A stretch of DNA of 64,000 bases from Escherichia phage ECO103 4-12-1. A program made the translations under genes and the position numbers. Positions within the stretch are counted from its first letter, which is position 1; each line of letters opens with the position of its first letter. Below, piece by piece: positions 3,009 to 4,842 of the stretch. Where the stretch lies: the sequence record OR844650; one strand, written 5' to 3'. The notes under the pieces are model-generated. The model saw only the letters and a list, made by a program, of their open reading frames with translations, did no database searches and was not told the DNA's origin.

Positions 3009-3542
3009 TTATTTCCTCATGTATTTTATAACGTCTTCAAATAATTGTATTTTTAAGTCCTCGTCATTTCCAGGTAAAAACTCACGAAAACTATCAAAAT
3101 CTTCATTTTTTGCGAAGTTACGCATTTGTGTTGAGCTATATTGACTTACATTACGGTCAATACCTGCTTGAATTGCTTTTATACTACAAAAATTATACAA
3201 CTTACCATTGTACATGTCAAGAGTTTTTTGAAAAGAATCAATACGGTCAGAACCACATATGAAAAGAACATCTAAGTACTTTCCATCCAGTTCTCTCATT
3301 ATATCAAATAGATTGTCTTCTGTGTAGATGTTCTCTTGCACTGAAGGATAGAATCCCTCTGTATAATACATTTTTAGTTCAGGTGGGAGTGGGTTTTTTA
3401 TATTGTCAGTACTGGTGCTTAGATATATTTTTAAATCAGCATTGTACTGTTCTTTCAATTCCAATGCACTGTTGAATACAAACCCATGTCCATTATGTAT
3501 TGGGTTACATCTCATGAATGATAGTATACATGTTTCTTTCAT
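3009..3542 (-). CDS. cytidylyltransferase-superfamily nucleotidyltransferase (NMNAT/PPAT-like)
   Basis: ORF 177 aa; N-terminal PIHNGH (HxGH motif) and C-terminal YSSTQMR (ISSTxxR-like) motif. Confidence 0.6.
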   Translation of the reverse strand: MKETCILSFMRCNPIHNGHGFVFNSALELKEQYNADLKIYLSTSTDNIKNPLPPELKMYYTEGFYPSVQENIYTEDNLFDIMRELDGKYLDVLFICGSDRIDSFQKTLDMYNGKLYNFCSIKAIQAGIDRNVSQYSSTQMRNFAKNEDFDSFREFLPGNDEDLKIQLFEDVIKYMRK

Positions 3543-4324
3543 TTAAGGTACTCTCTTACAATTCTCACAACTTCATCCAGCTTATCAATCCCAACAGTTT
3601 CGGTGTATCCACTACCATATTCTTCTTTTGTAAAGAATGTATGATAACCCATACTTTTTATATACTTTTCAATTTCATTAGTATATCCAATATATTCATG
3701 AAGATATAACTCATACTTTTGTTTGGAAGTATTTTCAATATCATATTTTCTGCGAGTGATATCTTTAGAAACACCTAATTTGAAATGGTCTTCAGCTTTC
3801 AGGATATAAAAATAAAGCTCATCATCAGATTTAACATCATGCTTTAAATTATAGGTTGAGCATTCTGGACAACCATAGCCATGAACTTTGAAATTATTAT
3901 AACTGGTAGTGTTCCATATACCATGTGTTGGGCATTCCAAAGATAGTATTGAATCTTTACCAGAAAATTTATGTATGCCATGAAATGTATACATATTTCT
4001 TTCTGAATCATTTGCGATAATTGATTTTACATTTTCACTTATTGATTCTTTGGTATGTTTTTTGCAGCCAACACATACAGGACAACCGACTGTTTGATGT
4101 GTAAAATTACCAATTGTACATTTCCATGTCCCATGTTCAGAACATTCCATTTCACAATAAGTTCCGTGTCCATTCCATTCACCAACAAAGCCATTAAATT
4201 TAATATTTGATAGCTTAGGTGCTTTTAGTTTATCATTTATTCTACTAGCATAAACACGTGGGTGTAGAGCATTTGGTGGTTTTCCTATCATAGAAACTGT
4301 GTTGATATCAATGTATTTTGTCAT
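3539..4324 (-). CDS. zinc-finger protein with C-terminal T5orf172/GIY-YIG-like domain
   Basis: ORF 261 aa; two repeats of C..HG.W...GCP.C; C-terminal LYFYILKAEDHFKLGVSKDITRRKY resembles T5orf172 signature. Confidence 0.4.
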   Translation of the reverse strand: MTKYIDINTVSMIGKPPNALHPRVYASRINDKLKAPKLSNIKFNGFVGEWNGHGTYCEMECSEHGTWKCTIGNFTHQTVGCPVCVGCKKHTKESISENVKSIIANDSERNMYTFHGIHKFSGKDSILSLECPTHGIWNTTSYNNFKVHGYGCPECSTYNLKHDVKSDDELYFYILKAEDHFKLGVSKDITRRKYDIENTSKQKYELYLHEYIGYTNEIEKYIKSMGYHTFFTKEEYGSGYTETVGIDKLDEVVRIVREYLK

Positions 4325-4842
4325 AAATTCTTCATCACCAATCCAAGAGATTTAAGATAATTGATTTTAGCAGTGGTTAAGTACTTATCCAGTACTATCA
4401 GACACGAAGGAAATGGTGCTGAATCTGTTTTCTTCTCTGGTTCTTCTGGGATACCAAATCGTAACCTTCCCTTAATAAAACAAATACAATCACAAACTTT
4501 CGCAGCATAATCCTGAAAGGCTATAGTATCCGTTCTTGATGGTACAAGAATTAATACAGTTGCCCCTTTATTATACGCATCTACTGCTTTAGATAACCAT
4601 GTTTTCAAATCACTATATGGAGGGTTCAACCAAACTATATTCTTTCCCCAATCCTGTGAAAGAGAATCATCATTTGGTGTAAAATAATTCTCACATAATG
4701 CAGTCTCATCAACACAAGCAGCATCAAGCGTAAATCCCCATAACTCATCTAACTCTTCAAAGAAATCTTTTGGAGTTGTCCAGTTATCTTTACCAGTACT
4801 AAAATGTACTGAATGTTTTTTCGAAGCATCCTTCTTCGACAT
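4321..4842 (-). CDS. DNA N6-adenine methyltransferase (phage Dam-like family)
   Basis: ORF 173 aa; WTTPKDFF, TLDAACVDE and LNPPYS (NPPY catalytic motif). Confidence 0.65.
   Translation of the reverse strand: MSKKDASKKHSVHFSTGKDNWTTPKDFFEELDELWGFTLDAACVDETALCENYFTPNDDSLSQDWGKNIVWLNPPYSDLKTWLSKAVDAYNKGATVLILVPSRTDTIAFQDYAAKVCDCICFIKGRLRFGIPEEPEKKTDSAPFPSCLIVLDKYLTTAKINYLKSLGLVMKNL

Follow-up and report, generated by a model that had tools for sequence, protein, structure and literature searches.

In phage T4, the genes for SegA-G, which are free-standing GIY-YIG enzymes, and mobE, located between nrdA and nrdB, are intergenic endonuclease genes sitting between conserved genes. Their flanking markers are co-converted, and the carrier is protected by differences in the target sequence. 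The T5orf172 family forms another such group: 87% of 229 surveyed T5orf172 homing endonuclease genes encode CapR, DUF723, or DUF4397/4379 zinc-finger repeats, and genes of this type are located at the boundaries of genetic exchange between phages (PMC10055350, Barth et al. 2023). The satellite PLE encodes CapR, a zinc-finger repressor whose origin lies in the DNA-binding portion of the T5orf172 endonucleases of ICP1 (PMC8096241, Netter et al. 2021). Here, we describe a locus in a 64,000-nucleotide stretch of DNA from Escherichia phage ECO103 4-12-1 (sequence record OR844650; the whole stretch is hereafter called the window), where a gene for a 261-amino-acid (aa) protein lies between the genes for a Dam-family DNA methyltransferase and a HIGH-motif nucleotidyltransferase (NTase). 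This middle gene is very probably a free-standing homing endonuclease gene (HEG) that has split a conserved, translationally coupled Dam-NTase pair.

Like other T5orf172-family genes (ICP1 gp53, gp121, gp130, gp165, and gp174, and those of T5-like and T4-like phages), the middle gene encodes N-terminal zinc-finger repeats and a C-terminal T5orf172-like domain in a beads-on-a-string arrangement, and it is free-standing, intergenic, sporadic, and located at a genetic-exchange boundary. It differs from these examples in its Asteriusvirus-like jumbo coliphage host, in the Dam/NTase junction as the proposed homing site, and in a T5orf172 score below threshold, while the first zinc ligand pair of the protein is CxxH, unlike the CxxC reported for CapR. 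Compared to the T4 Seg enzymes, where the GIY-YIG domain is N-terminal and the DNA-binding part C-terminal, the order of the domains is reversed, and the predicted nuclease domain is of the T5orf172 subtype.

An ORF-sized insertion between Dam and the nucleotidyltransferase

A megablast search with window positions 2500-5500 returned 34 related phage records (30 Escherichia and 4 Salmonella), with the best nucleotide matches to slurp01 and BAU.Micro_ELP-22 (both 98.8% identical). The named records inspected, such as slurp01, PBECO4, 121Q, and UE-S1, belong to the jumbo myovirus genus Asteriusvirus, and the window can be assigned to an Asteriusvirus-like jumbo coliphage by its matches. An earlier reading made from the letters of the window alone (the sequence-only reading) had described three open reading frames (ORFs) with 4-nt overlaps at the locus, and all three were found on the minus strand, with ATGA at both junctions:

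3009-3542, minus strand: HIGH-motif (HxGH / SSTxxR) NTase gene, 177 aa, phage 'cytidyltransferase' family
3539-3542, minus strand: ATGA overlap of the endonuclease stop and the NTase start (TCAT on the plus strand)
3539-4324, minus strand: predicted free-standing homing endonuclease gene, 261 aa, phrog_681, without a counterpart in the 34 related records
4321-4324, minus strand: ATGA overlap of the Dam stop and the endonuclease start (TCAT on the plus strand)
4321-4842, minus strand: Dam-family N6-adenine DNA methyltransferase gene, 173 aa, NPPY at 4615-4626, PF05869 and phrog_111

No middle gene was found at the Dam-NTase junction in any of the 34 related records, all of which have Dam and NTase directly adjacent. 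The match coverage of positions 2500-5500 was at most 75% in every record, and the two matched pieces came to 2219 bp in the best-matching records, compared to 3001 bp in the window. Dam and NTase overlap directly by 4 nt in slurp01, 121Q, WPEC5, UE-S1, ph0011, PBECO4, and Turkey3, with a single ATGA joining the two genes in the endonuclease-free phages. When the window was aligned base by base with its relatives, one 782-bp gap was observed, corresponding to window positions 3539-4320 with ATGA at both edges; given this repeat, the inserted DNA can equivalently be placed at 3543-4324. The sequence is ...GAATTT-ATGA-AAGAAACA... at the empty site and ...GAATTT-ATGA-CAAAA...CCTTAA-ATGA-AAGAAACA... 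at the filled one, showing that the insertion is exactly the ORF and that translational coupling is kept on both sides. A tblastn search of the endonuclease against the 64-kb window identified its own gene and no second copy.

The exact 261-aa protein is encoded on 19 public metagenomic contigs, including one 354-kb metagenome-assembled genome. In all eight of the contig places displayed, the endonuclease gene adjoins NTase, and it lies between Dam and NTase wherever the contig reaches far enough. The closest protein in a collection of 50,697 phage records was at most ~31% identical to the endonuclease, and a large protein database held only two closer homologues, P0001 (58% identical) and P0002 (54%). 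Both of their genes are located between Dam and NTase, on metagenomic contigs from jumbo phages that are more distant and whose Dam and NTase are 58-67% and 47-58% identical, respectively, to those of the window. The nearest cultured relatives of these two lineages lack the endonuclease gene, with 72% coverage in two pieces in each case. For one lineage (locus L016), these are Salmonella phages 7t3, SE_PL, Munch, and PHA46 and Klebsiella phage fENko-Kae01 (71% nucleotide identity, a distance too large for comparing tracts), and for the other (L017), Erwinia phage Hallingskeid (89%). The gene is thus present or absent at a fixed junction in three lineages.

A more distant homologue (29% identical) was found in phage RaK2 (record positions 76731-77762, locus L019), flanked by the genes for endonuclease VII (gp49) and the recombination endonuclease subunit gp46, and a homologue of this type occupies the same place in related Klebsiella jumbo phages. 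Being a paralogue at a different locus, it was rejected as evidence on the Dam-NTase homing site; it does indicate that the endonuclease family sits at other places beside essential genes in this phage group.

The sequence-only reading had treated the three genes as one functional enzyme island or operon, in which nucleotide or cofactor metabolism, a zinc-finger protein resembling a nuclease, and a methylase acting against restriction would work together. Their common orientation, the ATGA overlaps joining them, and the recurrence of the same three-gene order in two other phage lineages all speak for such an arrangement. However, all 34 related records keep Dam and NTase without the middle gene, the cultured relatives of the other two lineages do so as well, and paralogues of the endonuclease family are found in unrelated contexts, such as RaK2 gp49/gp46. 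We therefore consider a functional island highly improbable, and the island did not survive as a description of the locus. The middle gene is instead predicted to be a selfish homing-endonuclease gene, not a functional partner of its neighbours.

Architecture of the middle protein

The middle protein combines zinc-finger units with a GIY-YIG-like domain in the following layout:

4067-4207, minus strand: zinc-finger unit 1, approximately residues 40-86, likely ligands C61, H64, C81, and C84
3857-4015, minus strand: zinc-finger unit 2, residues 104-156, likely ligands C131, H134, C152, and C155
3542-3823, minus strand: C-terminal T5orf172/GIY-YIG-like nuclease domain, residues 168-261, with YFYIL, FKLGVS, RR, E219, and GYTE

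The two zinc fingers proposed in the sequence-only reading were recovered as two C-x2-H-G...G-C-P-x-C units that align with each other, and the C/H ligands of both units are invariant across ten homologues (alignment A1). Pfam CapR (PF21817) matched the protein in two stretches (E = 1.2e-16), the best of them residues 104-156, and DUF723 (PF05265) matched residues 118-156 (E = 1.2e-05; 25.6 bits with a cut-off of 20.9). In PHROGs, the protein matched phrog_681 'endonuclease' (6.2e-35). For the T5orf172-like C terminus, the match was weaker. When the C-terminal 99 aa (163-261) were scanned alone, T5orf172 (PF10544) was the top Pfam match, followed by MUG113, but its score of 16.4 bits (E = 0.013) fell below the cut-off of 20. 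Among the homologues, the orthologue P0001 scored 19.5 bits, while the distant P0003 (23.3 bits) and P0007 (50.9 bits) both passed. The C-terminal domain has the alpha/beta fold of GIY-YIG enzymes, and candidate catalytic residues are present (Y171/Y173, R191/R192, E219, and E242 in GYTE), with Y173 and E219 kept in all or nearly all aligned homologues. With this architecture, the zinc-finger units would recognise DNA and the T5orf172 domain would cut it.

Alternatively, the middle protein could be a domesticated, nuclease-dead DNA-binding regulator kept for transcriptional control, in the manner of CapR, a satellite-encoded repressor, or of I-TevI when it acts as a repressor. A domesticated repressor of this kind served to define the CapR domain (PMC8096241), and both the T5orf172 match below threshold and the neat coupling of the gene into the operon would suit this explanation. 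The orthologues with 54-58% identity nevertheless retain the full C-terminal domain together with Y173, E219, G239, and GYTE, and the patchy distribution of the gene, combined with sequence tracts ending at the gene (described below), is what an active or recently active endonuclease produces. Domestication thus seems unlikely to us, and a homing endonuclease remains the preferred explanation.

Recombination tracts and the candidate target site

Two tracts beside the insertion were distinguished by comparison with carriers and non-carriers of the endonuclease gene:

3455-3527, no strand assigned: divergent 73-bp patch beside the insertion, covering NTase codons 6-30 including HxGH
4325-4711, no strand assigned: 3' part of Dam moving with the endonuclease gene; window-type, not 121Q-type, in 121Q-like carriers

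Across positions 2700-5100, the window and slurp01 differ at 35 of 1619 aligned positions. Of these differences, 33 fall within the 73 bp at 3455-3527, just downstream of the inserted gene in the direction of the gene, and the remaining two are at 3258 and 4342. A Fisher test of this clustering gave a p of about 2e-43; it used the bounds 3456-3528 and hence counted 32 differences. Compared to slurp01, 10 codons of the patch have synonymous and 12 have non-synonymous differences. In codons 6-16, the window has the same sequence as WPEC5, a more distant phage, and in codons 17-30, ~17 positions differ from every endonuclease-free phage available. A donor of the patch was not found, as no phage record exceeded 84% over positions 3430-3560. 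We take the patch to be a form of the homing site that was co-converted or is immune to cleavage.

The carriers have two different backbones, slurp01-like in the window, L006, and L008, and 121Q-like in the outer flanks of L003, L004, L005, L007, and L009. In the latter group, the sequence is 121Q-type from 5100 to 4729, window/slurp01-type from 4711 to 4342, and 121Q-type again by 3168, which places the breakpoint on the Dam side between 4711 and 4729; between 4342 and 4711, L003 and 121Q differ at 37 positions. The 121Q-like carriers have an endonuclease gene and an NTase patch identical to those of the window. This mosaic in a 121Q-like backbone indicates that the gene travels as a cassette of at least ~1.26 kb, which extends ~390 bp into Dam and 85 bp or more into NTase. 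Presence or absence at a fixed site is thus accompanied by co-converted flanks.

Divergent tracts next to the endonuclease gene were seen a second time, independently, between the carrier locus L017 and Hallingskeid. Per 60 bp, these two have 0-3 mismatches in most of the flanking sequence and mostly 9-23 across Dam. In the first ~90 bp of NTase, we counted 10 mismatches in 29 positions and then 13 in 60, before the numbers went back to 1-3.

By analogy with what is established for free-standing homing endonucleases of phages, we infer cleavage activity, a target site, and a direction of transfer for the middle gene. In a mixed infection, the enzyme would cut the endonuclease-free allele near the junction, and the break would be repaired by recombination from the carrier genome, so that the gene and flanking DNA would be copied in by co-conversion. 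The carrier's own copy would be protected because the adjacent 5' sequence of NTase is recoded.

In two independent carrier/non-carrier pairs, NTase codons 6-17 differ, the carriers having SFMRCNP(I/V)H and the compared non-carriers (T/M)FGR(I/M)NPVH. These codons, encoding FGR(I/M)NPVHxGH, are the best candidate for the region of recognition or cleavage, although we hold this assignment only tentatively and it could well turn out otherwise.

Several observations count against the homing explanation or its details. The canonical GIY-YIG motif is degenerate in the endonuclease. The endonuclease-free phages PBECO4, UE-S1, ph0011, and WPEC5 already have the 'SFMRCNP' allele of NTase, and the orthologue at locus L016 coexists with a 'YGRLQP' allele. 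Given its occurrence in four endonuclease-free phages, the SFMRCNP allele is not diagnostic of carriage, and this is why the inference of a target site is tentative. Moreover, the endonuclease orthologues are about as far apart (50-58% identity) as the products of the neighbouring Dam (58-67%) and NTase (47-58%) genes, a pattern that also fits long vertical residence with losses. It could be proposed that the gene was ancestral at the junction in the whole jumbo-phage group and was repeatedly lost by deletion or ordinary recombination, not by homing; three lineages have orthologues at this one site that have diverged about as much as their neighbours, which is in line with this. However, the junction is perfectly coupled by ATGA in every endonuclease-free genome, a state that chance deletions would seldom restore. 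Apart from the insertion, the 73-bp patch, and two single bases, the window and slurp01 are nearly identical across 2700-5100, suggesting that a discrete cassette was exchanged recently, and homing endonuclease genes ordinarily undergo loss by recombination with an empty allele as one stage of their life cycle. We consider ancestry with repeated loss improbable and favour insertion by a homing endonuclease gene.

A more far-reaching proposal, which we regard as doubtful, is that a long-lived gene drive operates at the Dam/NTase junction in at least three jumbo-phage lineages, with Dam as cargo (an 'HEG island'), and drives recoding of the NTase active site. The change from FGR(I/M)NPVH to FMRCNP(I/V)H would then replace the glycine usually conserved in GxFxPxHxGH, and the FMRC-allele phages without the endonuclease (PBECO4, UE-S1, ph0011, and WPEC5) would be immune survivors of past invasions. 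If this were true, a selfish element would be shaping the catalytic-motif sequence of a host enzyme.

The flanking enzymes, the wider window, and significance

As the sequence-only reading had proposed, the upstream gene encodes a small phage Dam-type NPPY methyltransferase. Like other members of the phage Dam family (PF05869 / TIGR01712), it is an orphan without a partner restriction enzyme and a strong full-length match, scoring 111.1 bits against PF05869 (cut-off 28.1; E = 6e-32; residues 16-156), with NPPY at residues 73-76 (4615-4626). Further matches were to phrog_111 'DNA methyltransferase' (1.9e-56) and to the PADLOC orphan methyltransferase model (9e-33), while the TIGR01712 equivalog was narrowly missed (92.8 with a cut-off of 97.05). 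A role in a defence system was rejected, as PADLOC matched Dam only to orphan/Type II methyltransferase models and the middle protein only negligibly, to DruE. GATC is the target in characterised phage Dam members; its observed/expected ratio in the window is 0.52.

For the NTase, both motifs named in the sequence-only reading were found:

3486-3497, minus strand: HxGH codons, H16-N-G-H19, inside the divergent patch; H16, G18, and H19 invariant in 15 homologues
3120-3137, minus strand: ISxTxxR-type codons, S136-S-T-Q-M-R141; S136, S137, M140, and R141 invariant

The NTase gene is kept in all related jumbo phages. Like the phage 'cytidyltransferase/cytitidyltransferase' family (phrog_3041/395; S-PM2, P-HM2, and S-RIM2 cyanophage proteins), its product has HxGH and SSTxxR on a Rossmann-like fold, as is characteristic of the HIGH superfamily. 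The nucleotidyltransferase assignment was upheld by the motifs and by a match to phrog_3041 'cytidyltransferase' (3.9e-54), but not by Pfam, where CTP_transf_like (PF01467) stayed below threshold (13.3 vs 21 bits). Distant family members P0050 (28.1 bits), P0052 (32.5 bits), and P0067 (23.0 bits) passed PF01467. In searches with viral models, the NTase grouped with cyanophage 'cytitidyltransferase' proteins, and annotated viral NMNATs matched much less well. A literature search on phage 'cytitidyltransferase' found no paper.

The HIGH-type fold of the NTase is closest to those of NadM NMNAT and PPAT, the nearest structures being 2qjt (NadM NMNAT), 4nah (PPAT), and 1f9a (MJ0541). Searches of PDB sequences with the single NTase and with a 15-sequence profile gave nothing meaningful, the NMNAT equivalog models were far below their cut-offs (TIGR00482, 18.3 vs 112.45; NF000840, 16.3 vs 150), and there was no match to a CoaD/PPAT model in the NCBIfam search. 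Naming the substrate by sequence was rejected on the basis of the empty PDB searches and the NMNAT scores, and 'NMNAT-like' and 'PPAT-like' are fold-level statements only. A role of the NTase in NAD or cofactor metabolism and an anti-restriction role of Dam are suggestions.

The NTase family is large, with 3607 cluster representatives (50% clustering) at E <= 0.001. The domain is stand-alone in the window, and in many relatives it forms the N terminus of proteins of 500-1200 aa. Ten long members were scanned (from P0039-P0179); three passed PF01467, and some add DUF5824, Zeta-toxin/AAA_33 kinase-like, or Hint/intein modules. These fusion proteins appear to be uncharacterised. Within the NTase coding sequence, a perfect sigma-70 consensus was found on the minus strand at 3192-3220 (TTGACA, 17-nt spacer, TATAAT; 12 of 12 positions), directed at the downstream genes at 2713-3006 and beyond.

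In phage JP4 (~50 kb taken as corresponding to most of the window), Dam and NTase are the sole named products among 140 features, in agreement with the proposal of the sequence-only reading that recognisable enzymatic motifs are confined to this part of the window. Upstream of Dam, the ORF at 4859-5479 (206 aa) is annotated as 180-203 aa in relatives, indicating that its first codons are probably untranslated. Next to it is an ORF-poor gap of ~600 bp (5480-6082) between two minus-strand genes in a tightly packed region; the JP4 annotation of the equivalent part contains tiny opposite-strand ORFs only. The gap may act as a promoter or other regulatory region of the minus-strand genes downstream of it, Dam among them. 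A promoter and terminator scan of the AT-rich region 2400-6300 found 32 promoter-like sites with ~21 expected and did not define a transcription unit.

Five consecutive small minus-strand ORFs of 88-103 aa (382-666, 629-940, 951-1262, 1253-1519, and 1516-1791) have in common an N-terminal (L)NDIQFTYK(F/I)LY-like motif and are annotated as hypothetical proteins in relatives; by this shared motif, they look like a tandem paralogue array. At ~44 kb, the GC content rises from ~0.30-0.35 to ~0.37-0.41 and is higher to the end of the window (about 44000-64000), which probably marks a change of gene module.

The tetranucleotide GCGC is absent from the 64-kb window (0 observed vs ~50 expected under a second-order Markov model). 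Nor does it occur in ~50 kb of JP4 (L018; 0 vs 22 expected) or in any related locus checked (L005, L016, L017, L019, and L020). CGCG is at expectation, CCGG is at 0.55 of expectation, and GTAC is over-represented at 1.59. The absence of GCGC suggests that the whole clade avoids a restriction enzyme recognising this tetranucleotide. No paper was found in a literature search on GCGC or restriction site avoidance in these phages.

The T5orf172 endonuclease family and its behaviour are already described, and the locus does not change current concepts. Since the apparent operon is a two-gene pair plus a putative selfish element, no functional link among the three activities should be inferred. The window and slurp01 form a very clean natural before/after pair, near-identical over 2.4 kb except for a 782-bp gene, a 73-bp patch, and two bases. 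This makes it possible to test directly, in cultivable jumbo coliphages, where an endonuclease of the T5orf172 family has its target site, its immunity allele, and its co-conversion tract, and such an enzyme could serve phage engineering as a means of marker-free gene delivery into Asteriusvirus genomes.

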